64,000 nt of DNA from Catajapyx aquilonaris (taxonomy: Eukaryota): contig KZ538148.1 in the NCBI GenBank assembly GCA_000934665.2, positions 1 to 64,000 on the forward strand, given 5' to 3'. A program made the position numbers and the translations under genes. Below are positions 12,017 through 42,883 of this stretch, one piece after another; the stretch's first letter is position 1; each line of letters begins with the position of its first letter. The notes beneath the pieces are model-generated. The model was not told the DNA's origin. It did not search any database and worked only from the letters and a program-made list of their open reading frames with translations.

Positions 12017-12102
12017 GATGTACTACACACAATCTGCTCTCCGAGCGGGCGTGTCCAGAGGATAGTGATATTCAAGAAGAATGGCGTCCAGGCAATGGTT
12101 GA
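12017..12102 (+). CDS. hnRNPL: hnRNP L (smooth-like) internal coding exon, first part of RRM2: DVLHTICSPSGRVQRIVIFKKNGVQAMV(E)
   Basis: Preceded by branch-like CTAAT (~11992) and pyrimidine tract ttctctttttttacAG (AG 12015-12016). The 86-nt exon translates to a peptide closely matching hnRNP L RRM2 as recalled (human DVLYTICNPCGPVQRIVIFRKNGVQAMVE). It ends in phase 2 at a U12 donor. Confidence 0.96.
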
Positions 12103-12111
12103 ATATCCTTT
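12103..12111 (+). promoter_or_regulatory. U12-type 5' splice site ATATCCTTT
   Basis: Exact match to the RTATCCTTT U11/U6atac donor consensus at the exon boundary. Confidence 0.95.
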
Positions 12112-15100
12112 ACAATGAATTATGTGAAAGAGATGCGGTAATTTCCCCGGGCTTTTCCATCCCCCCTAAAAAATCAGCTTTTCGTGGGTCTTTGCGTAAG
12201 GTCAAAGTTCACAGCTCTTTTGACTGGCAGCTCCAGCAGCCGGCTTCGGCGCAGTATAGGTATATGCTTCGCAAATGAGATTGAGTTAGCTCACTCCCAC
12301 TCTGCATTCCGCTTTCCCACGAGAATAGCTATGCAAATGAAATGCGTGAATCATCAAGTGGGACTGTGAGGTTCGCATCTACATGGGACAAAGGACTCTT
12401 TNCCCCCCCCCCCCCCCTTCTAAATTTGTAGCCAATAAGAGAGGTCGAGAGCAATACCCTTGACTGAATCAGGACTTTCTGCAGGGTAGCACTTGGCTGA
12501 AATGGGTAGTGGGCTTATTACTTGTGATGTCGTTTGCTCGATGTAGGTTTTAAAAATATATACAGTATACAGCCTTCTGGGAAGGAGCCGGATACATTAG
12601 TAGGAGTCGCTTTCTTTGTCAAAGCAAAGATAGAATATAACCTCCCACAGAGTTAGTTTTGCTTGCAAAGACCAAACGAATATCAGCCGGGAGGAGCGGG
12701 GCCCCTTTAGAGAGCCGGGAAGCCGACGTGTTTGTATACGTCCTTGCTCCCCCCCCTCCCCCCCCCTCCTAGAAATCTTTTGTGCAGTATTCATGCTACA
12801 CATAGGGAAGCTGTAAGTAGGACTCTTTATGTTGTTCCATGTAGTCCCATTCTTCCTCTTTATACCTTTGCCCGCGTGGACTTAATTACCCGCCATTGTA
12901 ATGCCCAATCATGACGAGCTCCCAAAGTTGGTACATGGCCCCCACACGTAATCTCAGTATACCGGCGGAATACAACCCACAGGGGAGCGATGTCCAGATG
13001 GTGCTCGCTGCAAAAACATGGAAATGACGCTGGAGTCATCTCCTTGGCCCACATTAGTTTTTATGCGCAGTTTGACATCCCGTTCACGTCGCACACACGA
13101 GTGCCACACCTGTTCGGGCGTGACATGTGAATAATCCAGCGAGGGCTAGTTGCCGTAGGTGGCCTGGGCACCAAACCGGCAGGCAGGGGGAGAAATCCCA
13201 GTGGTGATTTGCCAGTGACGGGCCTTCGAAATGGCCCAAAATCCCCCAGGTTGGAAGCCCCGAAGGATCTGTCGTCAGTTGGGGGAGCGGCCAGTATAGG
13301 GGACGGCGCACCGAAAATGCTTACGGTGGTGTGTTTGGCGAGCGGTTTGCTGCAGGCTTATTTTTGTGGTGGATGGGTAGAGCTCCGGCCAAGGCTGATT
13401 TATCGGCAGGGTTTATTTATTTGGTCGTTAAAGCTGTCCTACTCGCGTCCTGCCTTCCGGTGGCCTCACCCCCTCATTTGTCGCCTTTGTGCTCGTCGCC
13501 GAGACCTAAGAGAAAGGCCAGGACCGGCCAGCTAAACTTGAGACCTGACTCAGTACTTTCACAATTATGCATGACAGTGGGTGACACGTCAGGGGTGATG
13601 CTTGGAATTCCTTTGTCATGACCTGTGTTCAAGTGCCATTGTGTCGTTTGATATTTTGAGCGGCCCGCTTTGTAGAGCATTTCACGGGGCAACATGGAGC
13701 GATCATCACTCAGCTCTCCACTCTGACATAGTAGCGAAGCAATAGGAGACATCAGGTCGGGCAGATACGTAGGGCAATGAAATGATATTTTGTGATACTG
13801 GTAAGTTGGTGATAGTTTTCATATCGCCTTCCATGAATATTCATGTGGTTTTAGATTATTCACATTTCAGATAAAAATAACTTCACGAGTTGTCCATGGG
13901 CAGTTTTTATTTTGATTTCTTGGCTGCGAAAACAAAGCAGGAGGAAAATAAGTATCTTGTAGGATGAGGTGACGTGAATTCAATTTTTAATGCATTACAA
14001 TATTCTTCACTCTTGACACTTTATCGGCAAAATTGCATTTTATATTGAGAATGTAGTACATGTCTCATAGACACAATGTCATTTTTGTTATCCTACCTCT
14101 AGAAATATCAAATGTGCCAGCTCAGTGTGTATCCATGGTGACTTTAGGCCGCATATTGTTATCAGAGTATGTGCAAGACTTAAACAAAGGCATAGTCTTT
14201 GATCCCACCAACATAATAAGAATCGAGGGGAAAATCATGACATTCCAATAAGTCTTCAATAGGCCTATTATTCAAGAGATAAATTACCAAGTACGTAAAA
14301 ACAGTCAACAATGCGCTACTCTGATAATTGAATGTGGCGTAAACCTGCATAAGACAATACCAAATATGAAAGTATACATTGCCCTTAGGCCATCATTTAA
14401 ACATTGTAACGTTGACGCATTGGGATATGTCTTGTTCATTTATAGCTACAGATTGTTAAAACTGACAGTGTTATGCACCGAGATCCATTTAAAATGCTCA
14501 CGATGTAAGCATAAGAGGGTTCCTATACAGATATATTGTTAAAATTCTTGAGATAAAGTCCTTCGCAATTTGCCTCTGTATTCAGGTAGGATGTCGAGCT
14601 TAGCCAGCCACAATGCTGTACACGTATTAAATTGAGTACACAGGACACGCTAGGGAACGGCGCTGAGACAGGTTGGACAAGCGATGCAGTGTTCGGGCAC
14701 GACAGTTAAATAGTACAAATTGGAAATACTAATAGCGGAGCGTTTCCGCCATCTTCGCGGAAGACATTCCGGGTGGCGTTTAGGAGGATTCAGAACACCT
14801 TGCAGCTCGTTAGCAGGGTGGGAATGGTATCACTTGCTAATTCGACAGCGCCGTCATCTGATACAAAAGGGTGTAGATTGTGAGCGATTTTATGAGGAGA
14901 AAGTTGGGGACGCCGTAAACTCCGGAGGCTAATGATGATGACCTACCCCCCACCACACCCTTCCTTCCCCTTTTCTCCCCGCCGTCGCCTCTGATGAGGA
15001 ATGGCAAATGTCGGGATTGGTCCTCGTTATATGTGGGGAACGTCGACGACGCTTCCGGAGCTGAGCAAACACGCCCGGAACACCCAGATCGGTGTTGACG

Positions 15101-16936
15101 TTTGGGGCGAGGTCATTCGCTCCGCGACGGAATTTGGTGGCTTCCCACATTCCACGCTTTTCGGATTTTTCCTCCCACTCTCTCCACCTTGTCGTCTTCA
15201 GAAAGGACCACAATACAGGATGCCACAAAGAAGCGCAGTAATGTTTGAATTGACGCTCCACGGATCCAGATGAATCAATAAGATAACCCTCTCTGCAAAA
15301 CAGTCATCCGGGGTCACAGCTTTGAAGGGAAGGTGAAACTCAGTAGCGCAGGGGAAATTTTTTAATCATGCACCCATTGATTCGGTGTATTTTTGAATCG
15401 TTACGGACTCTGGCCAAATTACAGACTTGGGGATCAGATTATGGGGTGCGCAGCTTGATTGGCAACATGTCGTTGACTGCATTAGGAGTCACGAATACTG
15501 TATCGGCATTCGGCGGTTCAAACCATATTGCGTTTGATGCTGGACACCTATAAAAAGCTATAATACATGTCAAGGTGGTGCTTGTATCTTGGCAAGGGCG
15601 GCTGTCATTTGATGTTTAGCTAAGCCATGATGTTGAGGGAAAGGTGGGGAATAGATGCAGTTTGGGAGGGGAGGCAAAGCGTGTTATCTGAGAATTTGTT
15701 TCCCATTACATTAGTCCAAATCCGGAAACGTGCTACCTAGCAACTGGGCCCGATCGATCTTCTCTCTCTCTCTGCTTTTGCCAGGCTACGAAATAGGTTG
15801 TGGAGAGCAATCATTTCGCAGTACGTTGTTTGCTTTCCGCCTGCCAGCCTTATCATACTGAAACTCGAAACGTGCTGGTGAGCTATACGCAAGGGCAATA
15901 TGACGTGAAACATGAGCATTGTTGGGGCGTGCCCCCTTGGCGTCTGTCTGCGACGATTGGCCATAGACACGTGTGCCCCGGCCTTGCTGTCGGAAGAGAG
16001 CTTGGTCTGTAGGAGCAGCTGGCCATGTCCGTTCGTTCGTCCGTCCGGCAGAACTGGCCCAGTGGTCAAACGATTTTCCAGCCGCCTGCCTTCCCAATCA
16101 AATAGCAGGCGGGCAGTCGTGCGGCAGGCGGACCTTGCACGGTGCCCGCATTCAACACCGGATCTCTTCTGCTTCTGTCTCTGCACATGCTTCATGGCTA
16201 AAGTTTTTTTTTTCTCCCCCCTTTCCTTCCCTTGTTGAGACAAAATGTCTGGCCTCGGAACCACTTGCTAACCGAGATCTATTGCCTCGCATTACAGCAT
16301 GTACGGTAGCACAAAACGATTTGTTCAGGCGGATTACTATAGCTACGTTGTTCATTTCTTGTCTTCTGCTTGCTTCGTGGCAAGATTGTGTAATAGCTCT
16401 ATACTGTTACAAGCGAAATGTGCTTGCCTCTTCTAACAGTAAGTCAAGTACAGTCAGGTAATATTTAAAGAGATTGAAAATGGGATTTATATTATGTGGA
16501 GTATATGCGGTTTATTCTGTTCTATGTTGGCGACCAAAATACAGTTGCCATTTCTGCCACTACGTGGCAGGTTCTTGCGGAAGAATACCTCCCGCTCTTT
16601 GCGAATTGGCCTGCAGATATGCATGTGAAGGCGTATCCGCGGGGGAACATCCAACAGTCGTTGCTCCTCCAGCGAGTAGGTTAGTTATGAATGCTTCTCA
16701 CGACCAACATCCTGGGGGTTTTTAACACGGGGAAAATACATTGATTCACATGTACCACACATGCTAGTGTTCCAAAACCCACTAGTTTTTTCATGGGGCT
16801 TGCGACCTTTTCACCCATTCAGCCGCGGAACTAGAGGATAGTTCAGGCGGTTCACCAAACTACGGGCCCTGTACACAGGAGGCCCCATGACGAAAGTAAA
16901 TAGTATACATACATTGCAATGTAAAATAACAAAATG

Positions 16937-17512
16937 CAGTAAAACTCCTATTAGTCGATTCTCCATGGGACCGGGGGAAAAAACTTGAGTTATAGAAGAT
17001 TCTACTTAGAGAAGTTCGGAATTTTTTAGCACATAACTCGATAAGGAACCCTACCTTTTATATCCAGCAGCGACGAAAGATGTTCAAAACTTAAAAATAA
17101 CTCACTATCACACTACAATGTTGTAAAAAAAAAACTCCATTATGGACATTTGCCTACTCTTAGATCGGCTCTCACTAAAGGATTCAATTATTATCACTAT
17201 CGAGTCAAACACTTCTTTTGGTAGACGGAGATCAGGAAAGAGCCTTTCTGTACATGTGGCCTACTCGCTACCCTTCAGCTGGGAAATGAGAATTTTCCGT
17301 GCACTCGCCAACATGGGCTTCGACTTCTAAGGGAGACTGAAAATGCATAAATATCCCATCGTAAGGCCCTGCCTGCACTTATATAGTTATGGAGAACTTC
17401 GCGTTATAGAAATTCGAGTTAGTGAAGTTTATTTCATATTATTTTACATTGTGACCAACCAAGCTCATAAGTTTCTTCGACTTAAGAAGTTCGACTTGTA
17501 GAAGTTTTACTG
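16937..17512. mobile_element. Tc1/mariner-superfamily (pogo/Tigger-like) MITE, 576 bp
   Basis: Imperfect TIRs: CAGTAAAACTCCTATTAGTCGA versus the reverse complement of TCGACTTGTAGAAGTTTTACTG. Right flank TA, left flank TG. Subterminal TTCGAGTTA/TTCGACTTA-type repeats. Confidence 0.75.
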
Positions 17513-20500
17513 TAAATGAAGTGGGGAGAAATAATTGAACAAAAGGGAGATGAATGGAGGCTCATAGCATTTCGCACTAGGACCCATAATGGCATGTTCT
17601 GCCAGGACAATTTGCAAGAGTTGTACAATATATTGTGTGCCTCTCTTAGGGCTGGTTGTACTGTAGGAACATGAGTTTAGGTGTACTACGGAGTTAGTCT
17701 ATGTTCATACAACCGGCACTTAGTGGCATGAGTGTAACTAGATTTCGGCAGAGTAGTAGTAGTAGGCCATGGCTAATTTCTTCCCATTAGGTGTGCCCAT
17801 TGGGACAATATAGTAGCCGTCTCACCTGGAGTGCCCGCTTGCATTTCGAATCGGGAACAGCACTCATCTTAGACTGGTCATAGGAAATGCATAGTGACAG
17901 GCAGAAAATCATTGTCAAAGGTTGGCCCATTTTTTATCGGGCTCGTTCCACATACGTCATTTTTGGTTGGCGGGGCAGAGCGTGGAAGTTGGGGCGTCGA
18001 TAAATAGATTCAAGTGTGACAAGTAGAACTGATGGGAGGAAAGAGCGTGGGAGTAGCCGGGGAAGGTGATGGAAAAGGGCGTTTGCGAGTTGTCACTGGA
18101 ACATTTTTGCTAGCCTTCCGTTTTTTGTCCGTGTAGTGCTCACAGGCGAGGAAATTTTGTGTGTCGGAGGCGAAACGTGCTATGGTGGGCAGGAAGAGGA
18201 TTCCGGGCACGTCCGTGGGCCGCAGGGTGGAAGCCCGCCCAGCCTTTCTGTGTAGTGCACTAGGCCTCTTTTTCTTTAACACTCTACCGCCTCCCTGCCC
18301 CCTGCTACCCTTCAACCCCCCCGTTGGATGCATGGCGGAGGCTTCAGTTGCCGAACAGTAGATCTAATTTTGCAAACGTCTGCACAAAGACCACTTCAAA
18401 GGCGGGACTTATGGGGAAGATGGGAGGAGGGGTGGCGAGATGGAGCGCGCAAATGAATTCGAAGTGAATTATTCTTTTGAGGGGTTAGTAATGAGCGGGC
18501 TGGCTCGCTTTTTGTTGAGTCCATTTTTCAGGAGGGCTGGTATCTAGTCGTAATTTGGCAGCAACCGCCGAGTTTAAATATACCTTTACACGCTATGCAG
18601 GCTAGCAGGGGAACAATTAGTAATCCAGATTGCTTTATGTTCTACTGCCCAGAATGGGTACGTATATTTTTGCCAGGCACAAGAAACATTATCCGGGATG
18701 TAAATGTTTGTTTCCATTCAAGTGTAGTGGGGCTGGTAATGTTGCGTGATGCGTCTATATCAATATTAGTGTACAGTGTGTTAATCCCGGTAGGTCAACA
18801 GAATTTATTTGTGCAAACCGAAAGCCATTTTCCCAATGGTTTATGCGAGCGCTCAAGTTGGCGTAATATCACAGCCTCCCTGCATGAACTAACAGCTGCT
18901 ATGCATGACCTTGGCCGTGATTCTGTGTCGATTCATGTGGCGGTGGTGGTGCTGTGTGGTGGCGATGGATGCGTTGGTTTCTTTTGCCAAAAGTTCCGAA
19001 ATTAAATAATTTGTGTGCGAGATTTTTCGGATGGTACGGATTCCATAGTTACTCATGCGATACTTGGTCACTGATGGCATTAATTCAAATGCCGGTATTT
19101 CAAATGTGCGGCAATGCGGGTGTGCAGAGATCAGAAAGGAATGGCTGCATGCAAATTAGAGATCAACTCTCGAGTTAAAAAGATTACAGCGTATTTCTCC
19201 ACGTATCAGTTTTTTTTAAAAAGCCGCAGTGTTAAAACAGGGACAAAAATTTTAAATAGCCTCTGTGCGCCATTTCAGGGCTGATAATATAATGATCACC
19301 TGCTCACTCAACGGAGCAGCCGCCATGTTGACAAACGAAAGGTTGCCTCTAATGGGGAACACTAATTTCAAGCGATTTCTCTGGAAGTGTACCAGATTCT
19401 GCCATAATGTCGTACTCCTTGCATTTGCTTGACACTTGCGGCGCATCCTAAAGGATCTACATCTGGCCTTAGCCGTGATTCATAAGACGCCGCACCTGCT
19501 ACGAATCAGGCCCAGAATTTGGTAAGTTACATGTGGAAAGCAATGTGAAGCATCTGCCACCCCGTCTAATTGCATCGCAGCCCAAGATATATAGTAGTAG
19601 TTGGTAATATCAACGCATTAACAGCAAATCCTGAAGCGTGGGCGAAACTTCAGGGGAAAGGAATTAATTCGCGGTGATGTGTCATTCCGGTGAGTCAGGC
19701 CAAAAGTTACAAGTTCACGGCATCCATTTGGAGCAACCCCCACGTGCTGTGCGACGACGTGGGCGACGCTAGTTGTCATTCTGAGAAAGAAATGAAGAAA
19801 AAAACGCTTATCAACCTGGAGCGCGCACACACTGCCGAAGTTATTCCAACTTTCCAACTTTTCTCATCTAAGGGAGAACGAGAGAGAGAAAAGAGGAGGG
19901 GGGGGGGGGGAAATCAGAAGGAATACTCTAATCCGGATCGGCTAACAGTCTCCTGTATCGGAGGAAGCTCTGATAAAGCCCAATATCTATGGGGTTTGGG
20001 GAGGTGCAGCCGGCTTCATTATATATGCATAACCAATTTATTACCTCGCCGCCTGATATTCGCTGCGTAGGGAAAGGAGACTGAGCGAAGCAGTAGCAAT
20101 GTTGTTCTTGCGGGGAGGGGTTGGGGATATCCGCAATCAATGTAGGTGGAAGGGAGGGAGTGGGTGGGTTGGGAACTCGGAATGAAGAGCCGGCTTGCCT
20201 CATAATGAAGGCTGCGTGATTCCCGATGGTCGAGCTGCGATCCCATCTCCTCCCCCTCCCCGGCCCTGTGTCCCCTTCTACCCTACGGTTAATAAAGGCT
20301 GCGTCCACCGTCCTAATGAACTGTCCCCACTGCAGATAAGAGGGATAGGGCATGTTCATCTGTCGCACCGGAGGGCACTCCAAAGCCCATCTGAAAACAT
20401 CCCATGAGGATGGTGGGAGGGACAGGCGGGAAGGAAAAAAATAATATAAAACAAACGAGGCTGTATCTCGTGGTTAATCGGCCGTAATAGGAACGTGCGG

Positions 20501-20531
20501 TTTATCTGCGAAAAGGGATTCAGGTTTTAGT

Positions 20532-20532
<1 letters not shown>

Positions 20533-20580
<48 letters not shown>
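20533..20580 (+). repeat. (GA)24 microsatellite
   Basis: Direct reading. Confidence 0.97.
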
Positions 20581-20585
<5 letters not shown>

Positions 20586-22095
20586 CTGGGAGGAAAATAG
20601 GAAAAAATGGAAGCCGGGAAAAGATGGCCGCAGTTGGCGGTCAGCTGTTGGAGGTGGGGGGACTTCTGCAAACATGACTAATTAGTCAACCTGCACATTT
20701 GCTTGCGTCCCACAATTAGGGTGTGATTTGAATAGACAAAAAGAAGTGGCGGTTGACACGTGTTTTGATGGGCGACTGTCTAGGGGGTCTCGGTTTGTCC
20801 ACGGCGATGCATAATTTTAACTTTGCGTAGCGTTATTGCTTGTCGGCGCCTTCGAAGCACCGACAGTGCCGACAGGAGGTTTGACATATATGAAGGAAAC
20901 TGTTTCAGGTAGTTATAAGGTGCCTAGCTATATTGAGCAATCGCAAATGAAATTGAATTTCTATTTTGGTTTTTGAGAATCAGGTTGCAGGCTGTTGGTG
21001 GATGCGAATACAGTAGTGACTTTTAATTATAGGAGAATTGACATGCAAATCGGGGAATAATACGCATCATACTGTTCATATACAACTCTGTGGGTGTATG
21101 CTCTGAAAGTGACACGTATTCTGATTTTCTGCGGCAGCACTTGTTTCGGAACTTATTATATCGAATCGTGTGGTCTGTACAATGCGCATGTAGTTTCATT
21201 TATGGTCTGTCATTATCGTGTGACATAAGTTCTATAGCAGTTGAAATGTTCTAAAAACCGCGGTATAAAATTTGGTTATGTAGGCGGCGGCGACAAATGC
21301 AATTTCTAAACTCGATGATTTCGAATTTTTCGGCGAATAATAACGTTACTTGGTTGTCCATTGTGTCACGGTTAGTTCCGTGGCTCTTCTATGCTATAGG
21401 ATCCAGGCTGTCGGCTAGCTTGGATTTGAAAATTCCCGACTCATTTGATGGTGTGATGCTACCGAAGCTTTCTGCGGCTATACATGAGTGAACTGGGCCA
21501 TTTTGTGTGTACTACAGCCACAATTTTTATCACACTGGGCTTTTATGATGAGATAAGCGTCGAGTCCTCTCTCAGACAAGCTGTACGAACATGAGTAGGC
21601 GTCTGATAACTGTCGTGACCGGATCTTGACAGCCAGAATTTATCTTTAGGACGAGCCGAGACACGCCAGTGCAGGGCGAGAGCAGTTGGGTGCCACTCTA
21701 TGCTGCGGGAGTCAAGTGCTTCCCAGGTAATGCCAGCCATAACGAACTCCCTGGACCTAGTCCAAGAGAGAACGTGACTATTAGGGAACAGTTATAACGT
21801 GCAGAGTTATTGTCCGGATTAGGACGGAAAATAATTATCCCAGGCGTGCGAGTTACGAGGGGGTTGTACCAGCAGCTTTGTCTGCTCCTCCTATTGCCAA
21901 CGAAGGCCAAATAATGAGGGGAAACACATTTTCAACATCCATTGGAGCAAATGTGGACTTCTTCCCTCCTCCTAATGAGTGTTTCTATTCAACTTTCCTT
22001 CCAATTTCCCCCCTTTCAGCTTTAACTTGCTGAAGCGCAGTGCGCCAACTTGTAATATAATTCTGAAAGAGACGAAGATAGGCTGCAATTTTTTT

Positions 22096-22099
<4 letters not shown>

Positions 22100-22153
<54 letters not shown>
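22100..22153 (+). repeat. (CT)27 microsatellite
   Basis: Direct reading. Confidence 0.97.
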
Positions 22154-22155
<2 letters not shown>

Positions 22156-25100
22156 CGCAGTGCTCATTTTCTCAAAGGCTCTTTTATCCCTGTCATGATG
22201 GATTGATCAGGGAAATGACGTGGGAGGGGAAACTGGGAGTATGGAGCTGGAAGTCGACCCTGTCAAATGCTGTCAATGCCGAGGCGACCAAAGTGACTCT
22301 ATCGGAGGTATGATCAAAAGAAGTGTAGGGGGGGAAAGGGGGCTTATCAGGCAATCATGCTTCAGTGCGTATCCCGATAAATTTATTGGATACCGATTAG
22401 TAATCACGTTGCGATGCCACATTGTTCGTTGGCTTAAAATTTATTTACCTTTTTAAAACCCGTCTCATCCGACTACAAGGTCCCCCCCCCTCCCCCCTCT
22501 CCAATCCCCTCCCGGCTGGGCTGGTCTGGTCAGTGCAGTGGTTTGGAATTGATTGGAACAATGCAGAACGCGAAACACATTCATTGAGGGAAAAATCATA
22601 TGAAAGGGTATAAGATTGGTTGGTTTTGCCCGCCCGCGCGCGCTCTCTCTCCCCTGCAGCTGTGGCCACGATGTAGAAAATTACAATGAAATTAATTTCC
22701 GGGCTACTTTGTGGTGGGGACGAAACGCGGTTGAGTTTATTCTTCATATGCCGACTAATTGCATAGTTGATTCGCGCTCGGAATAGTTGTTGTGTAATTA
22801 ATTTAGGGCATGGAGGGGGAAATTCCCTTTTATTACAGTGTCTGATTAGATGGTATTGGATTGCAGATTAGATGCGGGATAACTCAAATTTCTGTGTGGG
22901 TCTGAGGGACCGTCGTTAATCAAATCGGGTGCCTGGGGGGGGGGGGGATGATTCGGTTTTTTTTGTGTCTGTATCGAGAAATGTAGGGCGGATTGGAATT
23001 GCAAAAACGATAAATTTGGGCGGTGTGAAGGGGGGAGCACCTGAGGACCGGAATTTTGGGGAGGAGGAGTATGAAAAGAGGCGGCCACATATTGATTCCT
23101 GGGAGGCGTGTGAAGAAGTATCCCGCCGTTAATTTCCGCGAAATTGTGTTGCCGAGGTTTACTTTGATCTCCTCTTGAAGAGCTTGGCACCTAGAGTGGA
23201 TCCGAGTAACGAGCTTTCCTACCAAGTTCTCTCCCTTCTCCACTAAGACCGGGCTAATTCTCCCCGGCTTAAACTGCGATAACAACGTTGCCACCGGTGG
23301 CTGGATTTTCTCTCCTCCATCCCGCTGGGATGAAGATTTTCGGCGGGGGTGCTGGGTGGCTGCTTGGGACGGGGGATTATAGTTTTCAATAATCGTGGGT
23401 TTTGCTAATCGATAGATACTCCTCTTGGGTGGGGGGGGTTTCCCCCTTAATTAAACTCGGTCAGAAGTAATTCAATTTGGTTTGGGAGACAGTGCAGGCA
23501 TGCTATAACCCAGCCTGGCTGCAATGATAGGTACCGGGGGCCCAGATTTTTGCCTTGGAATCCTTTAGAAAAGGTTCGTTTCCTTGGGATTGCTGGCCGC
23601 CATATTTGCTCATTGATCTGGGGGCAATGCATATGCTAATCTGTAGATTCCAGGAGGGTTTTTTTTGTGGGTGGGTTTCCGGAGGCCTGTCGCCCACAGC
23701 TGCTTCCTCCTCCCTTCCTTTTTACCTTCCATCGTAGGGAGTTGCGAAAGCTTTTATACTACTGCTCTTGCCCTAACTCCGGACGCCTCAAGTTTGGAGG
23801 GACCCAAGAGCACGGAGGAAATGCATCCCAGAAGGATGAAGCTCATTGTGGAGTATCAGGGGAGGCCCCAGGGTAGGCCACTGCCGTAATCTTGAGCTTT
23901 CCCCCACTTCTCCTGCGGTATTGTTTAGGACGGAGGTGGGCTTCCCCGCCAAAGTGCTCGGAGCAGTATAACAAATGACCAACTGTCTAGCAAAGAATGA
24001 CACCACATGATGTGGGTGCGAGTGCTGATGATGTGTTCATGTCCGCTGTTTATAACTGGTGGCGGATGGCGCCAGCATGTGGTTAAAGAGATGCTGTGAT
24101 TGTTCCAGTTCGATAACAGTGTTTATACAGGGTGTTCAGTAACTCCCGCATAATGGGCCGGTAGGGCAAATTACTGGCCTATTCCAAGGCCAAAATTCGT
24201 GGCTTTCTGTTTGGCCGGGAGGCGTCATTTGGCCATGCGGCGGAAATTAGGCTTCGATGACAGATCGCTTACCTACTGTACTACAGTACTTATGGAAACG
24301 GCATTGATATGCACATTAATATAAGGATGTCATCAAAACTTAGTTGCCGGCTCAAGCCACAGTGACGCTTCCGGCCAATAACTGATGTGGAGCATTTGGA
24401 TCTTAGAATAGGGCATTCTTCCTGCCTGGCCATTGTGTAGAAGTAAATGGCCACCTTGTGTGAGTCTATTTTGGAAACAACACGCGCTGGATGTTATATG
24501 TAGTCATGACCAGTGGGGAAAAAAGCCTGACACGAGCATCTTACATCCTGGAGTGTTAGTTAACTGGGTGGTCCTTTTTAAGCGGCGCATTGCCTGCTTT
24601 AAGGGGCACCGTAAACCCCTGGAGCTTGCCATTTGACCTCTTTTGCGCACGTGCATGGCGTTTGAGTTACCGCTTTGACGGCAGTACTTGACTGCGTTAT
24701 TTGGTGCCTCCGCAACATCCAAGTCAAGGCACAGTAAAGTCTGAGTGACAGTAGATGGGGCCGTTTTTCTTTTTATGAGTTGATACTCTTTTCTGTGAGT
24801 TGGGCGGCATTGCAAGTTGGTGGTAGTGGTTTTGCAGAGCAGGGGCAGTGCGGTATTTTATACTAAACTGTGCCGGAGGACTCTCGGGACGCATTGGAGG
24901 GAGACGAGCTGAGAAACATGGGGGCCGGGTTTCCTGACATTCAATGTGGGCCCTGCTGGGGAAATGCAGGCTCGTGTATCTTGGGACAAAATCGCTGGGA
25001 CCCCGCGTCTATATTGGAAGGGATCTGAAAGTATCAAATAGGAGTGTCGCCGTTAATCATGTCCAGGGAGAGGCATGGGCTCCCTCCTCTACCGGCTTAT

Positions 25101-28100
25101 GGAGATCTAATAAAAATGATGGTTTCCGCCTTCTTTGTGAATCTTGCGCAGACCTTTTTTTATCCGGGGAACCTGGACGGGTTCTAAATAAAATAGTCCG
25201 CGCTGGCGGGGAAGGAAAAAATAAATATTGGTTTTAGCGGAGGGAAGGTTTTGATATTAAGTTTGGGCGCTGTATGTGGAAAGTTCAGTGCAGTGGAGAG
25301 TGAAAATTTTATAGCTACTGTATATACTAGTCTAGTTGAGCGCCAGCAGCCGGACGCTGTTACCCAGCCGACCTGCGCTAAACCATCGAAACACAATAAT
25401 TAAAGGGATTGATGCATTTAATTACTACGGTGTATGACGGGACAAAGTTGCCTAATTACCCCTCCCGTGTCTTTAATTATGGAGTACAGTAGGGGTTGGG
25501 GGCGGGATGGAGGGTGGGGAAAACAGTCATGTGAGCCCAACGCTGAGCGGGCCCTGCTGTGCGCGTTCTTTGAGGTATAGTCGCTCTGGAAACTGCACCA
25601 GTACACTAGAACGAAGAATTGAGAGATTAATTTTGGAGGAATTTCTCCAGATGGACACCAAGCGTTGGCAGCTGGTGCCGAGTTTCCAGCTGGAATTCAA
25701 ATTAGAGGCGATCCCTCCCTCCCTCCCACGCTCCCACCACCCCCATACCCCCCCCCTCTCCCTCGGAAACTATCTCTCAGGGAGCGCAAGCGACTTCATC
25801 CCAACAAGGACGGCAACAAATCCAATGTCTGCATAATGGTAGCCCGCCTGTAATGGGAATGGGAGAGTGCGAGTGGAGCCGTATGTTTCATTATGCAAGG
25901 CGGACATGAAGTGGCATTTGCGCCCGATGCAGGGGGATCAGAAAGAACCATTCATTTACGTCACAAGGCCATCCTGCGTGCGGATTGTAGCTCTGACCCC
26001 CCTTTTAAAACCGCAATGAAATTCAAAACCGCATTGGCGAGCGACCAGAAAGCAGTAAACATGGGTTCCCCTCATGGATCTCGAGCCGGCCGGCCGTTAC
26101 TCCGTTTCGGGGCTTCTTTCGGTACTCGCATATGTGAAGGGTGGGCGGGTGGGGGAGGGGGGAAAAACTGCAGGGTTGCATATTTTTTTTGAACCATCGG
26201 AGGACCCCCCAGTCCCTCCATTGCGAGGTTGTTCCCGTAATTAAAAAGGGGGGAGTGGGCGGGGAATTTTCAACCACAAAGCTGCACACCCTGCCAAAAA
26301 TAATGCACACGCTTTTTTGGACACTGCCAATGGCTTGCTGGGAATTTTCAGAGCACACTTTAACAGTCGCTTGCGCGCCTTCCTTTTTAAATACAGTATT
26401 ATGCAGATGTGGGTGCGACAGAGCGCACAGTTCAGACATTTGGGGGGACCACACATGCTTGCGCTGCTTTGCTTGGCCGCAGAAACACGTGTAACGAACT
26501 TTTGAACGAGGCGAAAACAATTTTACGTGCCCTAAATGTGCCTTTAATTTCCTTCCTGAATGACGGGAAATGTCAAGGAACAAATTGGCAGTATATGAGT
26601 CTGGAAACGTGTGCCATGGAGGCCTGATGCCGGAAAGGATAACTTGTCAGATGCATCAGTCCAAGTTAAATAGTTTTTGTAAACTTGGTTTACGAGTGCT
26701 GCTAACAGTTCCTCTTGTAACTAGTGAAATCAGATTAGAGCAAATCAAATTGTTTCCCAAGCTCTCTCACTTCGCTACGGTTGACTTGAAGATAACCGTT
26801 TCACTTCAAAGGAGCTGCAGTGCCCGTTTCTTCATTTTCCCTCTTTGGCAAAGTTTCGTCGACTTGGGTCCCTCCATCAATTGCAGATGCTGTGTAAATG
26901 TTGCAGGACCTTTCCAGCAGCCCTTGCGATAACGCCTTCAGGTCAACTTGAGGAGCATCCCCAAAGTTTGGTATTCTTGGAAGATCTTGCTACTCACGTT
27001 CCAAGCAGCTCCCAAGCGCAAAAGTAAATTACCCGGACTCGTTTCCAGTGTGCTTCCTTCCCTGAAGCCCCAGGATGTTATACAGCAACTCCTTTTGTCT
27101 TGCAAGCCCAGGTCCTGTAATTCAATTTTAGCTTATTGACGTCTTTGGGAGCACGTGACCTTTCTTCCTGATCCAAATCATCATCAGCATACTTCCTCCC
27201 CTTTCTTTTGATCCGCTCCTGCCTAATGACGTATGCCAAGTCTGGAAACGTGGAGCGCATATTTAAGTACATAACTGGATGGGGGGGGGGGGGGGGGNGG
27301 GGAGAGACTTTTTGCGCCCTTTCACCTCCGCAGACGGTAGTTAGGGGCCGGCCTTGGAGGTGAGTTTTGTCCTCTCCCGGATCCCATCTGGAACGCTCTC
27401 TGGCGTTGGGAACACTCGGTGCCCTTCCAGCTGCATCATGGGGATAATTGTGTTACTGGGAATTGTAATTCTGGGGCTGGGCGAGGTCCCCTTTTAGGAG
27501 GACGTGCCTAGGAGGAAACCTCTTACTTCGATTGCCGGCGGGGGCTCTTACCTTTGCCAGTGTAATAATGGGGCCACTATTCTGCCGGAGAGGCTAGAGG
27601 AAATGGTCGCTTCATCGTTACATGGAGCTATGATCATCCAGTTAAATTATGCAAGCATTTTTCGATGCTTATGCATAGAACGCGGCGGAAATTACTAAAA
27701 AAGCGACGGACAGAGCGTAAGCTTTTAAGCGGCCCTTTGTTGGGTTTGTCAAGGGTGCTTGTTATGCCGGCCCAGTTGACTCATCACGGTTTTACGTGCC
27801 AGGAGACATCTGGCATATGCATTATAAGTGGAGAGCTGAAAGATACAGCATTTGGAGGAGGGGGACATTCGCAGATGAGCCTGCCATTACTATTTTAACA
27901 GGCTGCGTTTTTAGCTGTTGGGCATTCATTTACGCGCGCGTAATTTTGAAAGGTTCAGTACCTTGTTGGTGTAGCTTATTAGTGACAACATATCGTTCTA
28001 TAAAAAGCGTGCCTGGTGCACGTTTGGCTAAGGAAAAGTAGAACGTGGTAGACCTAGTCGCCTGGGAGCTTGGAAGCCGTTGGGGGGGGGGGGGGGNNNN

Positions 28101-31100
28101 NNNNGGGCCTTTCTGTCACAGCAGAGTAATAGTAGGAAAAGGCGAAAAGCCCATATCAGAGTGTGGGTGCGGTTGAAAGGCGGAAGTGCAGGGATGGTAT
28201 CGAACCTCTTTTTCCTTCAACTTCCAAAATCCATCCTCCTCCTCCTCCTTCCTTTTTTCTTCTCCTTCTCCCACCAGCCTTCTTGGGCCGCGCATCTCGT
28301 ATGAATGGCGGGACTCCGTCGACGTGGCAGCGGGTGATTGATCGGGACGGGCACATGATTGATGGCACGGTAATTGGCGAAATGGGGAGGGGGTTTTGCT
28401 GGCGTTTAGCCTACCAAGTGACGGAGAATGGAAATTTGTGGTGTGAACGTGAGGGGGAAAAAAGGTCCGGTGGCAATTTTTTTATGTAGTTTGAGGGCGG
28501 GTAGCGGGCTAGCCTGCCATTGTGCATTGTTTGCTTCTGCAGAGGCTTGAGGATGACACTGTTTTTGTGAAGGAGGAAAAAGGCGAGTGCCAGTGCAGCA
28601 CGTTTGCAAAATGAAGCGTGGCTTGGATGTCACTTAGAGTAAGGGACGAGTCCCAAATAAAAACATGGGTATAAGGCAAACCTTGACGTAAGTATGGGCT
28701 TTTACGATATGAAAATTCCATGCCAAGGGAAGCTTTGAACGTTTTATGTGCAGGCTGTTGTGGGCTGGTGGGAGAAGGGGGTGAGGGGAGGAGAGAAAGT
28801 TGGTCGCAATTTTGCTTGCGGTGAAATTGTGTGCCCACAACGTAAATATTGTTGCATGTCACATGCGCAGTTATCGCGGACGATTTTGCTCCCGTATTTA
28901 CTGGAATTGGAGCCACATTGTTGTTGCTGTGTAAAATCCGGTTATAAAATGAGGATATCGCTATGATTTTGCTGTTTATAAACAATCCGGCGGTGGGCCC
29001 GATGGGGATTATTCAAGCCAGATGACGAGAAATAAAGTGTGGGCGTAATTATGCCACGCGTGTCACAAACTCAAGCCCTGTTGCCAAATTCGGCGGCAAC
29101 AAAAACCGCCAAAAATGAGCCCGCGGCTCTCCCATCTCTGTCGAATCTCCCAAATCCATCAATCTACAAATTCCATGTATATGGACTGCGCCATACCGTT
29201 CGCTAATGAATCATGCAGGAGGGCAAGCGAGGGAACTCATTTTCCAGGAGAGAGTTTGGAGCTGCCATCCGCCGCACCGCACCGCCCGCCCGCCCCATAA
29301 CCCCGGTGGCCGCTGCAGGGCTGATATGTGCTTTTTTTGTGAGGTGGGAAGCCGTGTCCATATTTCAATTTTGCCCCCAGCATTGTTTGCTCACGCACTG
29401 TAGACCAACCGCACAAGGGAACTTCCTGAATGATTGTCGGCTGACCTAGAGGAAGCATTCATTATATTAGGGAGATTTGGCTTCCACTGCGCATCCAAGG
29501 TCATTACGGAGCCAATCATCGGTCGGAATTGCTTCCGCAGGCCAATCCAGCCACTCTTAAGAGGGGATGCGCAGGAACCACCTTGTGCTTGCCTTCTGGG
29601 AGGTGGTGTTGGGAAGGACGGGAGCAGAGATAACGTCGGGGTTGTGTGCATGGGCCGTCGTTGGAAACTCGCCAGAGAAATTGGGTGGGCGCTTTTAAAG
29701 GCTCGGCCAAGGGCTTGTTTGAGGGTTTATCCGGATGATGATCCGGAGAAACGAGGAAAGGAAAGGCTCCCATAGTGATTGGCTTCATGGACTTTCGAGT
29801 GGGGAGAAATGTGGGTCTCACAACCACTTTCGAGAGGAAATCGGCAGGTAGTTTTTACATGGATCTGCACACTTTTCAGTCAGAATTCAAATGCTGTGTG
29901 CAAGCCCAAGAGCAAAACCGGTAATAAGACTTAAGCCTCCTAGGAATTCAGAGGGAGTAGATATTTTCATCAGAAAGGTTCGGGGAAGGGCCGGTGGATT
30001 GCGAGTTCCTTGAGAGCGAAGCAGGAGCGAGAAAACGAGAGAAGTGAATCAAGCAACGGCCGGGGCCTCCAAAGTCGGTTTATTTTGGTCCACGGAGCCA
30101 ACGCCTTGATTGAACTGGTTTACTTTCGGGTGGAATTCGGCGTTGGGGTAACTTCCGCGCGGGCCAGAGCGGAAACTTGGCTTGTTTTTAATGCTGTCAG
30201 TGGCTGGAAAAACAAAAGTCTGTTGCCGGAAATTAATCAGCCGTTGCGAAAATATTGGCGTGAGGGCCTTTTTTCTTCGTGAGAGAAAGATGGAGCTGCT
30301 ATGCCTTCGGGCTCGAGACTACGTTTCACATGAGCGTAAGACAAAAGCGTCTTTGCTACTCTACAGTTTGCAAGACTAGTGCCTTATATGCGAATTCATG
30401 TGCCCGCGCGAGTGTTTGCTAGAAGCTCTGACCAGATGCCTGGGCCGGCTGATTCTTTGCCACCGATCCGGCTGTATCCGCAGAGCTGGACTTTTGAGTT
30501 TGCTTGAAGAGGCAACCAAAAAGTTGGTCCTATCACGGCAGTCTGGAGCGGCCGAATTGGGGTTAGAAGTTGACACAGGGATCAGCTTTCGGCGGCCAGT
30601 CGAGACAGACGAGGTGGAAGGCTCTTTGGCACGAACCCAGAAAAAGCCCAGATCCCTTCGCTGGTCGGAGATCAGTCGAAAGCGTCCGAGAAGGGCCTCA
30701 GAGCTTTTCCCATGGCCGTCTCATGGGAACCGCAGAAGCGATTTAAACCGGGCGAATATTCCCCAGGATGCCAGCTTTTCCGAGAGGGCCTCTGCTGCTT
30801 CCAATAATTAAGCTGACCCGGCCGGCATCTGCCCTGAAGCCTGTGCGCTGCGGGCTGTATATATACAGTAGGTGGGAGCATTCGGAAATCACTCGCAACA
30901 TGTGCAATGATGGCTGCCATAACGAGAAAGCCGGTTTTGTTTGGCTCGAATGGAACGACTGTGTATTGATGATTCCCTAACGTTATGCTACTAAAGGTGA
31001 ACTCTTTTTTTCCCGCGGTTTTGTGGGCACAACGTCCGTTTTGTTAGGAGAGAGGATGCGAGCGAGTTTTTTTTTTTTTTTCGCTCTGAAATGACATGAA

Positions 31101-33765
31101 ATATGCGTGGTTAGCCTACCCCGTTTGTGAGATGGGTTGAATGCGCAACAAAAGCGAGTTCTGTAACGAGAATGTCATCGAGCTCCACCACCATTCAGAA
31201 TGTTGGTGAATGAGTCTAGTTTGGGAAGCGTCATTGGGAGCGTCACGGGGCTTTGACTGTGCCCGAAAGGCAAATCCTGTGGAGGATGTACTGTTTGGCG
31301 GGAAGGTAGCCAGTCAGGCTGGCCATATGGGTGAAAATAGTGGCGGTGGTGCCTAGAAGCTAGCTAGTGTAGAGACGTCGGCGGCGTCAGGAGTGGAGAG
31401 TGTGCACCCCCTTTGATCAGCTGCGTAACCAAGAGGTCGACTGAAGCTTCCAGTTTCAAAGGAATTATCTCCGGCCCCTTTTGCGTGGCCGCTTTGGCGT
31501 TGCCATGCAATAACGCCTAGGATTATGTGTTGGCGAGGTGGCACTTCAGATGAGGATGAAGCTCGGAGAGACATTACATTTTCCCTCCCTTTGCCACCAG
31601 ACGGGCTGGGTCCGTCCACAAACAACGCACGAGAGTGTGTTGGCACCACGACATGGAGCCGGCACTAAATGTAGTCTATTTTTGATGGAAGCCGCCCCGC
31701 GTGCAAAGTATGTGCGTGGCCCGCGCATGGTTTTGTACTAATGGTCAGTAGAAGATTAAAGGAGGCCTTGATGGTAGGGTTGATGCACTGGGAAATGAGA
31801 TTCTAGTTGAGAGCTGCGGATTGACGTCAATGGGAGCTGGAAAATCACGCAACGTTCCTCTTGAATGAGTTATAGGCCTGGGCCTGCTGTGATCTGGTTA
31901 ATGTGAAAGCACAGATTGTCTACTTTGGCAGGGTGTGGGATTATGCACAAGATGAACCTAATACGATATTGATTTATCGAGATTGCGGGCCGCCCTATCA
32001 AGTGACCTGGTTCACGTGAGATTTTCAGATTAGCTGCATAATGCATGTTGATTATACGCTACTCCTTCCTGAGTGAAAGGTTTCAAATCACTTGGAAGAT
32101 TTGTGGCGCTGGCTGACAGTGACCCGCAGGGAAATTATTCTGTAAGAGCCTTCCGAGTGTAACTGTGCAAAGAGCTCATTGCATGCGAAAGGGGCGGTCT
32201 GAGGGCCTGGGTTTTGTTACATGTGAAAGAATCTGGTGACTTGAAACCTGACGTTCCGACGATAAGGTTCACTCTCATTTAATGCGGTTGGAGCAAGGTT
32301 AATGACCGGCCTGCCTTTACTAAGAGGCATTTTTACGTCTGCAAGATTTGAAAGAAGCACGCAAAGGTTATGGGCGTAATTAGGAGCAGATAGGGCTCTG
32401 CAAGTAATTTAGGGAAGAGGAAGGTCGCTTTCTCTTTTACCATTCGGAGCGTATGGTGCAGGGAACCGTCCAAATGTGTACTTTGTGGAATGTTCGTTTG
32501 CCCTTAAGCTTGTAACTTATCCGGAATAGCCGCTGGAATTTCAACGCTCGCGCGTCAAAATTAAAACCGCATTAATTGGAATAGTAGTACACGTGGCAAC
32601 TATGTTAACTACGGCGGAAGGTCCTGGACCAAAAGCATATACACGCAGCAACTAATGAATTCCTGGGCATTGACAAATTTATTGTATTGCCTTAATCCGG
32701 CGGTAGTGGAGGCCGAGATGGAATCATAGAGCGTAACTGGCGCAGGAATGGCCGGAATGCTTATGTTGACCGAGTTGCATCGATGAAGAAGATTGGGGNG
32801 GGGCATCTTTCCGACAACCACCGGGCTGTCGCTTCTCGTTTGTGCCAAACTTTTTATTAAGCAGAGCCCCGTTTGGAGATTAAAGGAGCAAGCAGGGCCC
32901 TCTGGAGCGGGATTAATCTGAGTCGACGGGCGTCATTCAGGGTCGGCAGCCTGGAACTGCACATGGAGGAAGAGCAGATGAGGCTGCTGATTAGCGAACG
33001 CTCCCCTAGCCTAGCTGAAGCTCTACCTCTCGGAAATGAACGTCGTCACCTGCCACTGCTCGCAACACAGCACTAGTATACGTCCAGCTCTCCTTTCGGA
33101 CACTGCCGCCTGGCCAGATCCGGTAGGGGTGGTTGGGGAAAGCTGGCTGGGCTGGCTGCCTGGCCGAGGGGGCCAGAAGATGAGGAAACGATTTGGGTCA
33201 TTCTCGCGGGATTTTGGCAGTAATCGAGTGACGATCAAGCACCGAAATGAGAAAAGGGCAATTCATCACAAAAGCGGAAAAGCGGATGAGCTGAGGGTAC
33301 CATCTGGACTTAACTCCCTTTCCGCCCAGAACTTCCCATCCAAATAGTGTGCAGCAGAAAAAAGCGCGTTAGGAGTCAGGCAAGCTCCCCATGGGCCGTG
33401 GCTGTTAATTCGGGCTTCTAAAGGCCCAATCTCATTTCCTGCTCCTCCAAGTCCAGGAAGGATAGCGTAATCGTCTAGCTCACGTGATCGATGGGCTATT
33501 GGGCGGCGGGAACGCGGGCCGTGTTTCTTCGTAAACTGGCTACGATCCCCCCATCCGTCTTGCCCTCTCACTTGGGGAATTAACAGGCCTTCTACTACTC
33601 GGGAAGAAGGAGCAGGGGCAACAGCCCCTTCTCTTTTTCTTATTTTATGACCTACCCTTGTGACCCACTTGAAGACGCCATCTTCTTCTGGAAGAAATCA
33701 GAGACCCCGAAACGCTGATGTTTTATCCCACCACCATGCCCAATCGTAAAACGCTTGTAAAGAGA

Positions 33766-33785
33766 TTCCTTAACTCCAATTTCAC
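33766..33785 (+). promoter_or_regulatory. U12-type branch point TTCCTTAAC (33766-33774) and AC acceptor (33784-33785)
   Basis: Exact match to the U12 branch consensus, with the branch A 12-13 nt upstream of the terminal AC. Confidence 0.95.
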
Positions 33786-33882
33786 GTTCGACAGTGTGGA
33801 ATCTGCCAGGCGAGCCAAGGAGTCGCTGAACGGAGCTGACATCTACTCCGGTTGCTGCACATTGAAGATCGAGTATGCCAAG
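33786..33882 (+). CDS. hnRNPL: hnRNP L internal coding exon: (E)FDSVESARRAKESLNGADIYSGCCTLKIEYAK
   Basis: 97-nt exon containing the hnRNP L signature LNGADIYSGCCTLKIEYAK. It starts after the U12 branch point plus AC, completes the split GA|G Glu codon, and ends at the consensus donor AAG|GTAAGT. Confidence 0.97.
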
Positions 33883-35467: not shown

Positions 35468-35498
<31 letters not shown>

Positions 35499-35782
35499 TA
35501 TAAAGTGCTATCCTTGTGAGGGTCTGGCAAAAATAAAAATTTAAAACTAACCTAACCTAACCTAACCTAACCTACAAAATACACACGAAATTTTGGTGAC
35601 CTATTTTTTCACAGTAAAAAGGAGGTCTTGGTTTGATTTTCCGCCATCCTTGTGAGGACTGTGTACGTTATGAGGGCCTGAAAAAAGTCCTCGTAAGGTT
35701 TTCGGTCCTCACAAGGATAGGAAACTTGCGAAAAATATCCTCACAAGGATAGCAATGTCTGACCACACACACACACACACAC
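35468..35782. mobile_element. ~268-bp inverted-repeat element (35496-35763) between two (CA)n tracts, carrying about five CCTAA repeats
   Basis: Perfect 16-bp inverted repeat TGCTATCCTTGTGAGG (35506-35521) / CCTCACAAGGATAGCA (35739-35754), extra internal copies at 35646 and 35705, CCTAA run 35547-35574, (CA)14 on the left and (CA)9 on the right in the same orientation. Confidence 0.75.

Positions 35783-42837: not shown

Positions 42838-42839
<2 letters not shown>

Positions 42840-42880
<41 letters not shown>
42840..42880 (+). repeat. (CT)20 microsatellite
   Basis: Direct reading. Confidence 0.96.

Positions 42881-42883
<3 letters not shown>

Follow-up and report, generated by a model that had tools for sequence, protein, structure and literature searches.

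Minor introns of the vertebrate hnRNP L genes

In human and mouse, both HNRNPL and HNRNPLL are listed as minor-intron genes in the MIDB supplement (GGAATATCCTTT and TGAATATCCTTT, respectively), and the 12-mers spanning the 5′ splice sites of the vertebrate HNRNPL and HNRNPLL introns read GGA|ATATCCTTT and TGA|ATATCCTTT. According to Table S6 of Olthof et al. (2024), the introns of mouse Hnrnpl and Hnrnpll are responsive to the loss of U11, that of zebrafish hnrnpl is responsive in rnpc3 mutants, and that of human HNRNPLL is responsive to depletion of CENATAC. Janice et al. (2013) describe the minor intron of human and mouse HNRNPLL (HNRPLL) as a twintron; in vertebrates, a nested U2-type variant leads to a protein that is shorter by one residue. 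Neither smooth nor hnRNP L is mentioned in the main text of the paper on U12 introns of Insecta, and HNRNPL is absent from the supplements of PMC6865273.

The intron analyzed in this study occupies positions 12103..33785 of the window (the whole 64-kb stretch of DNA that was analyzed); this and all other features described below lie on the + strand, unless stated otherwise. Its codon and phase (GA|ATATCCTTT following ...QAMV), as well as its AT-AC class, are those of the HNRNPL minor intron in human and mouse. Window positions 33766-33775 are identical to the final 10 of the 12 letters that the MIDB supplement gives as the branch-point sequence of human HNRNPL. The 5′ splice site 12-mer of human and mouse HNRNPLL (TGAATATCCTTT) is identical to positions 12100-12111, and the position within RRM2 is likewise shared. 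A vertebrate minor intron in this region had been mentioned in the original prediction, and the MIDB and Olthof et al. (2024) data place it at the same codon in both paralogues. To judge from its sequence, position and phase, it is orthologous to the HNRNPL/HNRNPLL minor intron. The class of the intron, its host gene and its position have already been described, and the difference observed here is one of size: the HNRNPL intron measures 1,545, 811 and 170 nt in human, mouse and zebrafish, respectively, and the HNRNPLL intron is 1,672 nt long in human and 945 nt in mouse, versus 21,683 nt at this locus.

The host gene and its exons

The intron is flanked by two short exons encoding parts of the second RNA-binding domain. 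Exon A (12017..12102, 86 nt, in the middle of RRM2) encodes DVLHTICSPSGRVQRIVIFKKNGVQAMV plus the GA of a Glu codon, and was identified by tblastn with 14 hnRNP L/LL orthologues (70-87% identity). It is preceded by a U2-type 3′ splice site, read from the sequence as a pyrimidine run followed by CAG (tttctctttttttacag, 12000..12016). Exon B (33786..33882, 97 nt), found by tblastn with the orthologues, consists of a G followed by the codons for FDSVESARRAKESLNGADIYSGCCTLKIEYAK. The next intron (33883..62082, 28,200 nt) is of the U2-type, begins with GTAAGT and ends with a pyrimidine run and CAG; it separates exon B from exon C (62083..62146, 64 nt, PPKLNVYRNDTESWDFTNPNL), which was found by tblastn with the orthologues and is followed by GTGAGT.

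The best identity over the exons was recorded for a cricket protein (71 of 81 residues), followed by those of a damselfly, a horseshoe crab and a scorpion (69 of 81 each) and of an abalone (68 of 81). Among the matches listed, the named homologues were mostly hnRNP L or hnRNP L-like proteins, the others being generic or hypothetical. Exons A-C align to residues 144-226 of the abalone orthologue, and residues 112-227 of this protein are matched by PDB chains that comprise one hnRNP L/LL RRM, located after the stretch matched by RRM1 chains (23-127). Splicing signals, homology and the PDB-matched stretch thus agree with the earlier assignment of a U12-type AT-AC intron to RRM2 in a gene of the hnRNP L family. 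The host gene is invertebrate-like and is probably co-orthologous to both vertebrate HNRNPL and HNRNPLL.

The upstream exon (...NHVLLFTILNPxYPITV) was not found in positions 1-12016 by relaxed tblastn and a pattern search, and either lies beyond the window or is too diverged.

Splicing signals of the AT-AC intron

The 5′ splice site of the intron (ATATCCTTT, 12103..12111) starts with the dinucleotide AT at 12103-12104. Its first eight letters, ATATCCTT (12103-12110), correspond to the U12 consensus /RTATCCTT, placed at the intron's first base directly 3′ of ...CAG GCA ATG GTT GA. At the other end, the branch-point sequence TTCCTTAAC (33766..33774) fits the U12 consensus TTCCTTRAY exactly; the branch A is the second A (33773), at a distance of 12 nt from the final base of the intron (33785). 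U12 branch points usually lie about 10-15 nt from the 3′ end of the intron. Only TCCAATTTC, without a long polypyrimidine tract, separates the branch-point sequence from the terminal AC (33784..33785). The intron consequently displays five features of its class, i.e. the 5′ splice site, the branch-point sequence, the distance of the latter from the intron end, the AT-AC termini and the short stretch that follows the branch point.

Exon B opens with G TTC GAC AGT, and its junction with exon A yields ...VQAMVE|FDSVESA, which makes the intron a phase 2 intron. Only the join 12102/33786 restores the gap-free conserved peptide in comparison with the 14 orthologues. The donor, the branch site, the AC terminus and the in-frame AMVEFDS peptide are therefore all found where the original prediction had placed them.

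The motif counts qualify the weight of these signals. As had been noted by eye, neither of them has a second perfect copy on the + strand: ATATCCTT occurs once on both strands of the 64-kb window taken together, and TTCCTTAAC has one copy on each strand, the one on the − strand lying at 59838-59846. By chance, 2.3 copies of ATATCCTT and 0.64 copies of TTCCTTAAC were expected, and the observed counts were reached in 92 and 15 of 100 shuffles, respectively. The relaxed motifs RTATCCTY (four matches versus 6.8 expected) and TCCTTRAY (five versus 9.4 expected) gave a similar picture. Since each motif taken alone occurs at chance frequency, the significance of the pair lies in its position, which is informative because both motifs adjoin exon ends that were set independently by protein homology.

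Taken as a whole, these data confirm 12103-33785 as a real 21.7-kb AT-AC intron of the U12-type that lies within the second RNA-binding domain encoded by an hnRNP L gene. Termini alone do not settle the class of an intron, and rare U2-dependent AT-AC introns exist, as mentioned in PMC1557818, so removal of this intron by the major (U2-type) spliceosome had to be considered. However, the 5′ splice site and the branch site both match the U12 consensus exactly, and the orthologous vertebrate introns react to the loss of U11 or rnpc3, which makes such a mode of splicing extremely improbable. It is very probable instead that we are dealing with a U12-dependent, phase 2 AT-AC intron that splits a Glu codon in RRM2 of the hnRNP L/LL (Drosophila “smooth”) orthologue, and that it represents an expanded counterpart of the vertebrate minor intron.

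Reading past exon A into the intron leads to a stop after four codons (...MVEYPLQ*), so the full protein can be produced from the spliced form only. No frame-keeping GT-AG pair was seen near either end of the intron on reading by eye. In these two respects the locus appears to differ from the HNRNPLL twintron.

A contig with the spliced form

A contig with the predicted splice junctions was found in X5, a run labelled with the same species but coming from another sample and study than the likely source of the assembly; its kind is not on record. Record 9 of this run (282 nt, depth 4.3) is identical to exon B, with 0 differences over 33786-33882. The 14 letters preceding exon B have a single match in the window, at 12089-12102, and the first 30 of the 171 letters following it also have a single match, at 62083-62112. 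The contig thus lacks the AT-AC intron, whose 3′ border it places exactly between 33785 and 33786, and passes from 33882 to exon C. The exon A side of this evidence comprises 14 letters (compared with a bridging criterion of 31) of one low-depth contig from one run; within these limits the junction 12102/33786 is cut exactly at the predicted bases.

We also considered that the spliced contig may not derive from mRNA but from DNA, for example that of a processed pseudogene, in which case expression and splicing of the gene would not be shown. None of the runs listed is recorded as RNA, which is consistent with this reading, as is the unrecorded kind of X5. On the other hand, the cover provided by X5 on a 20-kb stretch on the exon B side is limited to exon B and two repeat patches (4 of 30 bins). 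DNA contigs of run X1 (record 2) continue through both borders of this exon. The perfect match to exon B and the joining of three exons precisely where the borders had been predicted argue further for an mRNA, and a DNA origin of the contig is accordingly very unlikely. Moreover, a retrocopy too would record the same splice junctions.

Length and content of the intron

The original prediction described the intron as very long for its class. This holds in comparison with its orthologues, since 21,683 nt corresponds to 13-27 times the length of the orthologous human and mouse introns (811-1,672 nt) and to 85-215 times that of four complete metagenome introns (see below). It holds less well for the class in general: five of the first 171 human minor introns in the MIDB length table (a sample for the human rank, from part 5 of 9 of the table) are of at least 21,683 nt, with a maximum of 68,221 nt, and such long introns (for example those of 68,221, 42,954 and 35,967 nt) belong to the same U12 class but to unrelated genes. 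The adjacent U2-type intron is 28.2 kb long, so long introns appear to be general for this hnRNP L gene.

The intron contains 11 N in four places (12402, 27298, 28097-28104 and 32799), and its exact length of 21,683 nt is thus the figure of the assembly. These N leave room for the view that the exons are real while the length is in part an assembly artefact (a misjoin or missized N gaps), the true size being much different. Consistent with this, the X1 contigs break near 32803, and the read comparison concerned the exon B side of the intron, from 28200 onwards. Against it, 28267-35452 is matched with 0 differences by two X1 pieces adjoining at 32803, and four DNA runs contain 0.99 of the words sampled from 28200-38199, although the assembly was probably built from these runs, which would then offer no independent evidence. 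The equally large neighbouring intron also speaks for the length as assembled, and we regard a substantial error in size as unlikely.

Rfam searches of the whole 64-kb window gave 0 matches at gathering scores, snRNA included, and searches of Pfam with the 114 ORFs of at least 95 aa from both strands of the window, among them those located in the intron, revealed neither a nested gene nor a recognizable transposon protein. Besides (GA)n and (CT)n, no long repeats were found inside the intron. The longest pairing run between its first and last 1,500 nt was 11 nt, which was equalled in 52 of 200 shuffles, and recursive-splice-like sites (YAGGTRAGT) were absent from both 12103-33785 and 33883-62082. 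Exon A and the intron tail showed no similarity at the DNA level (971 of 1,000 shuffles scored as high). The one Pfam match in the window, to SMIM43, is sub-threshold and is located outside the intron.

Proposed mode of splicing

By analogy with the vertebrate orthologues, removal of this intron would depend on the minor spliceosome. In line with what is established for minor splicing, the 5′ end of the intron would be paired with U11 at ATATCCTT, and TTCCTTAAC, situated 12 nt from the terminal AC, with U12, after which U4atac/U6atac-U5 would catalyse its removal. Because the donor and the 3′ site are separated by 21.7 kb, recognition is probably aided by exon definition, mediated by strong U2-type sites on the outer sides of exons A and B, both of which are short (86 and 97 nt). 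Relative to its vertebrate orthologues the intron is expanded, reaching 21.7 kb, and the adjacent intron of the gene measures 28.2 kb.

It is conceivable, though rather unlikely, that the giant intron acts as a dose gate. Since retention closes the reading frame four codons beyond exon A, hnRNP L supply would follow how active the minor spliceosome is, and the 13- to 200-fold expansion of the intron with its signals kept perfect would add a long delay in transcription and splicing; the situation would then resemble that reported for Srsf10, with the supply of a regulator of major-spliceosome splicing tied to the minor spliceosome. Nothing in the present results supports the suggestion of the original prediction that hnRNP L may be rate-limited by minor splicing owing to the length of the intron. 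Olthof et al. (2019) report greater retention for shorter, not longer, minor introns.

The locus opens no new question, but it illustrates that a particular minor intron has remained at exactly the same codon, in the same phase and with its U12 signals retained, from vertebrates to an arthropod-like invertebrate, with a length ranging from about 100 nt to 21.7 kb.

The same intron in other homologues

The junction of exons A and B is often damaged by gene prediction that allows GT-AG introns only. Among the 120 public homologues listed, 106 fit the motif for the start of exon B; this start was xVE|FDS in 52 of them and otherwise in 54. These counts have to be read in the light of the query, which contained 38 in-frame intronic codons and so biases the list towards models translated across these signals. 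In 52 of the 54 aberrant models a T (ACN) immediately precedes FDS. The branch site appears in translated form, as LNxxxT or [SP]LTxx(x)T, in 25 protein models, and eight contain VEYP (...MVEYP), the translation of GA|ATATCC.

Metagenomic sequences (39 loci) provided 15 loci with an intron directly before exon B and a U12-like branch motif, which ends 9-12 nt before the last intron base. Some of the loci are duplicates over the stretch shown (L002 = L003; L017 = L019 = L038). The termini of the 15 introns are AC (six), AG (seven), AA (one) and AT (one). An intron position shared by HNRNPL, HNRNPLL and 15 metagenome loci must be old, as had been proposed.

Four of the metagenome introns are complete: two of them are of the form GA|ATATCCTT..AC (255 and 126 nt) and two of the form GA|GTATCCT..AG (101 and 130 nt). 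All four (L006 and L018, AT-AC; L023 and L028, GT-AG) carry a U12-type donor and branch site after the same GA (...AMV/VLV-E). In contrast to the intron described here, they are only 101-255 nt long, and those of L023 and L028 have switched to the GT-AG subtype.

Structure of the intron

The exons on either side of the intron were delimited independently of splice motifs, by tblastn with 14 orthologues. Exon A (12017-12102, + strand), preceded by a pyrimidine run and CAG, encodes DVLHTICSPSGRVQRIVIFKKNGVQAMV and ends with GA, the first two bases of a Glu codon, while exon B (33786-33882, +) starts with G TTC GAC AGT, encodes FDSVESARRAKESLNGADIYSGCCTLKIEYAK and is followed by GTAAGT (AAG|GTAAGT); these outer, U2-type sites are both strong. 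A GT-AG intron of 28,200 nt then separates exon B from exon C (62083-62146, +; PPKLNVYRNDTESWDFTNPNL). The donor ATATCCTT (12103-12110, +) begins at the first base past the last homologous codon position of exon A, the branch site TTCCTTAAC (33766-33774, +) lies 12 nt ahead of the first base of exon B, and the intron terminates with AC (33784-33785, +). Joining of the exons in phase 2 yields ...QAMVE|FDSVESA. All parts of the original prediction (U12 donor and branch site, AC end, in-frame AMVEFDS peptide) could therefore be located, and 12103-33785 is a real U12-type AT-AC intron.

The donor and branch motifs are unremarkable by themselves. Within the window, ATATCCTT was observed once (2.3 expected) and TTCCTTAAC twice, one copy per strand (0.64 expected), which agrees with the claim that neither has a second perfect copy on the + strand; relaxed forms of both motifs were found at or under expectation. 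Their evidential weight lies in their position, since they adjoin exon borders fixed independently by homology. No GT-AG pair that keeps the frame was found near the intron ends, and read-through from exon A into the intron meets a stop after four codons (...MVEYPLQ*).

The intron spans 21,683 nt, a length whose exact value depends on the assembly, because 11 N are present at four places within it. The window contains 32 N in ten short runs (4119-4121, 12402, 27298, 28097-28104, 32799, 39731, 40633-40646, 41343, 42442 and 60299), and at least one of these, at 32799, is near a break between contigs of the DNA sequencing run X1 (the junction of records 1 and 2, at 32803). Pfam, Rfam and repeat searches of the intron revealed no recognisable ORF, RNA family or long internal repeat.

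Evidence for the spliced form

Of the sequencing runs that contain the stretch, none is recorded as RNA. The predicted 12102^33786 junction was seen in a contig of run X5, which carries the species label of the likely source runs, comes from a different sample and study, and has no library kind on record. In this contig (record 9; 282 nt, depth 4.3), 33786-33882 is matched with 0 differences and the match ends at the two borders of the exon. Ahead of exon B the contig carries 14 letters that are found at a single place in the window, the end of exon A (12089-12102); past exon B it has 171 letters, of which the first 30 are likewise found at a single place, the start of exon C (62083-62112). 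The X1 DNA contigs continue unbroken across both borders of exon B. A spliced form therefore exists whose AT-AC junction is exactly as predicted, documented by one low-depth contig of unrecorded library kind, whose upstream side comprises 14 letters against a bridging threshold of 31.

The host gene

A search with the exon B frame gave 629 proteins with E <= 0.001 among 687 candidates; in the best 120 of these 629, the named proteins were mostly hnRNP L or hnRNP L-like, the rest having generic or hypothetical names. Compared over the 81 residues that the three exons encode, the best-matching full-length protein was that of a cricket (71/81), followed by proteins of a damselfly, a horseshoe crab and a scorpion (69/81) and of an abalone (68/81), with vertebrate proteins below these invertebrates; the source is accordingly an invertebrate-like animal, perhaps an arthropod. 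The three exons align with residues 144-226 of the abalone orthologue, in which residues 112-227 match PDB chains of a single hnRNP L/LL RRM and are situated between stretches matching RRM1 chains (23-127) and RRM3-4 chains (349-556). The intron thus splits RRM2, as had been proposed.

Conservation of the intron

Vertebrate hnRNP L genes had been said to carry a minor intron in this region, and both HNRNPL and HNRNPLL are indeed listed as minor-intron genes in the supplementary tables (MIDB) of Olthof et al. 2019 (PMC6717393). The 5' splice site of HNRNPL is GGAATATCCTTT and the human branch-point sequence is CTTTCCTTAACT; the 5' splice site of HNRNPLL, TGAATATCCTTT, is letter-identical to 12100-12111 of the window (PMC6717393). 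Responses have been recorded upon U11 loss for the mouse Hnrnpl and Hnrnpll introns, in rnpc3 mutants for the zebrafish hnrnpl intron (170 nt by coordinates), and upon CENATAC depletion for the human HNRNPLL intron (Table S6 of Olthof et al. 2024, PMC11347168), so that dependence on the minor spliceosome is experimentally shown for orthologous introns. The intron of HNRPLL has been classed as a twintron, with a U2-type variant that is one residue shorter (review, PMC8329584; Janice et al. 2013, PMC3564746). The Catajapyx intron is thus an orthologue of a vertebrate minor intron that is known and experimentally validated, and is notable for its size only.

A metagenome scan gave 39 loci, including duplicates over the stretch shown (L002 = L003; L017 = L019 = L038). 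In 15 of the 39, an intron stands directly before exon B, with a U12-like branch motif ending 9-12 nt before its last base; together with the two vertebrate paralogues, this bears out the view that the position is ancient. These introns end with AC (6), AG (7), AA (1) or AT (1). Four are complete: two of the form GA|ATATCCTT...AC (L006, 255 nt; L018, 126 nt) and two of the form GA|GTATCCT...AG (L023, 101 nt; L028, 130 nt). Position and U12 class are thus conserved across many loci, with subtype and length variable. The AA (L004) and AT (L030) ends are rare U12 3' termini; TCCTTAAC, perfect or near-perfect, lies 10-11 nt upstream, and both donors fall beyond the fetched sequence.

In 17 of the 39 loci exons A and B are contiguous, i.e. 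cDNA or intronless, one (L032) fits neither group clearly, and six (L016, L034-L037 and L039) were left out of the sorting. Two of the 17 are on contigs that look genomic (L010, 14,313 nt; L014, 6,722 nt) and combine contiguous exons A and B with a non-coding, GT-starting stretch after exon B, read as the next intron, which suggests that some lineages have lost the U12 intron.

The intron has also left a footprint in protein databases. Among the best 120 homologues, obtained with a query whose 38 in-frame intronic codons favoured intron-reading models in the ranking, 106 fit the exon B start pattern and the other 14 were left out. The expected xVE|FDS was present in 52 of the 106 and a different reading in 54, of which 52 have T immediately before FDS, because the intronic AC and the first base of exon B form that codon. 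The translated branch site was present in 25 models and ...VEYP, the translation of GA|ATATCC, in eight. Such translated intron ends (VEYP..., ...LNxxxT) occur in many of the hnRNP L family proteins in public databases, from fish, birds, camel and others (P0004, P0035, P0056, P0058, P0073, P0076, P0101, P0116 and others), where the AT-AC intron has led to erroneous annotation.

Length and splicing of the intron

The intron had been called very long for its class. This stands in relation to its orthologues: it is 13-27 times longer than those of human (HNRNPL 1,545 nt, HNRNPLL 1,672 nt) and mouse (Hnrnpl 811 nt, Hnrnpll 945 nt; PMC6717393), and 85-215 times longer than the four complete metagenome introns. 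It does not stand for minor introns at large, since in part 5 of 9 of the MIDB length table 5 of the first 171 human entries are at least 21,683 nt, with a maximum of 68,221 nt (PMC6717393), which places the length inside the known range. Long introns seem to be a property of the gene or genome rather than of the AT-AC intron, because the adjacent U2-type intron measures 28.2 kb and no earlier exon was found within 12 kb upstream of exon A.

The signals and the orthologues support a scheme in which U11/U12 would recognise the intron and U4atac/U6atac-U5 would then catalyse its removal. As the donor and branch site are 21.7 kb apart, exon definition over the short exons A and B, with their strong outer U2-type sites, probably aids their recognition; neither pairing of the intron ends above chance nor recursive-splice-like sites were found in the intron. 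The suggestion that minor splicing is rate-limiting for hnRNP L is possible, given that retention of the intron yields an early stop, but its probability is low. Olthof et al. 2019 (PMC6717393) describe shorter minor introns as more retained and longer ones as more often alternatively spliced, so that length alone is no argument for a bottleneck.

Other features of the window

The in-frame translation of the intron's final ~107 nt (33679-33783, +; HLLLEEIRDPETLMFYPTTM...) weakly resembles the RRM2 start of orthologues (NH[IV]LL.TI.NP.YPITV), a segment that belongs to the exon preceding exon A. Its local score of 27-33 exceeded the shuffle mean (17-19) and was reached by 3, 14, 82 and 30 of 2,000 shuffles for four orthologues compared post hoc. 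The likeness was absent from the loci of other species and no DNA similarity to exon A was found; a decayed exon relic is possible, and chance is the probable explanation.

Two patches of the next intron (35537-36203 and 43541-44874) showed a summed X1 contig depth of ~2,000-4,400 (~29 elsewhere) and therefore represent repeat families of high copy number, which are matched in part by X5 contigs as well (at 35584-35754, without differences, and at 44253-44388). Just ahead of the first patch lie a (CA)14 and a (CTAAC)5.6 array; CA repeats are binding motifs of hnRNP L.

The upstream intron contains a satellite- or foldback-like element (5997-6802), in which a ~135-nt unit is repeated about four times in tandem (6006-6520, 87% matches) and then once more in inverted orientation (6658-6802, 88-93% complementary).

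When 1-62000 (+) was divided into 2-kb bins, G was more frequent than C in 31 of 32 and T more frequent than A in 26 of 32; the base counts of the AT-AC intron itself were G 5770 versus C 4713 and T 5806 versus A 5383. Transcription of a long gene is expected to leave such asymmetry on its sense strand, and the pattern is consistent with one + strand transcription unit across the whole window.
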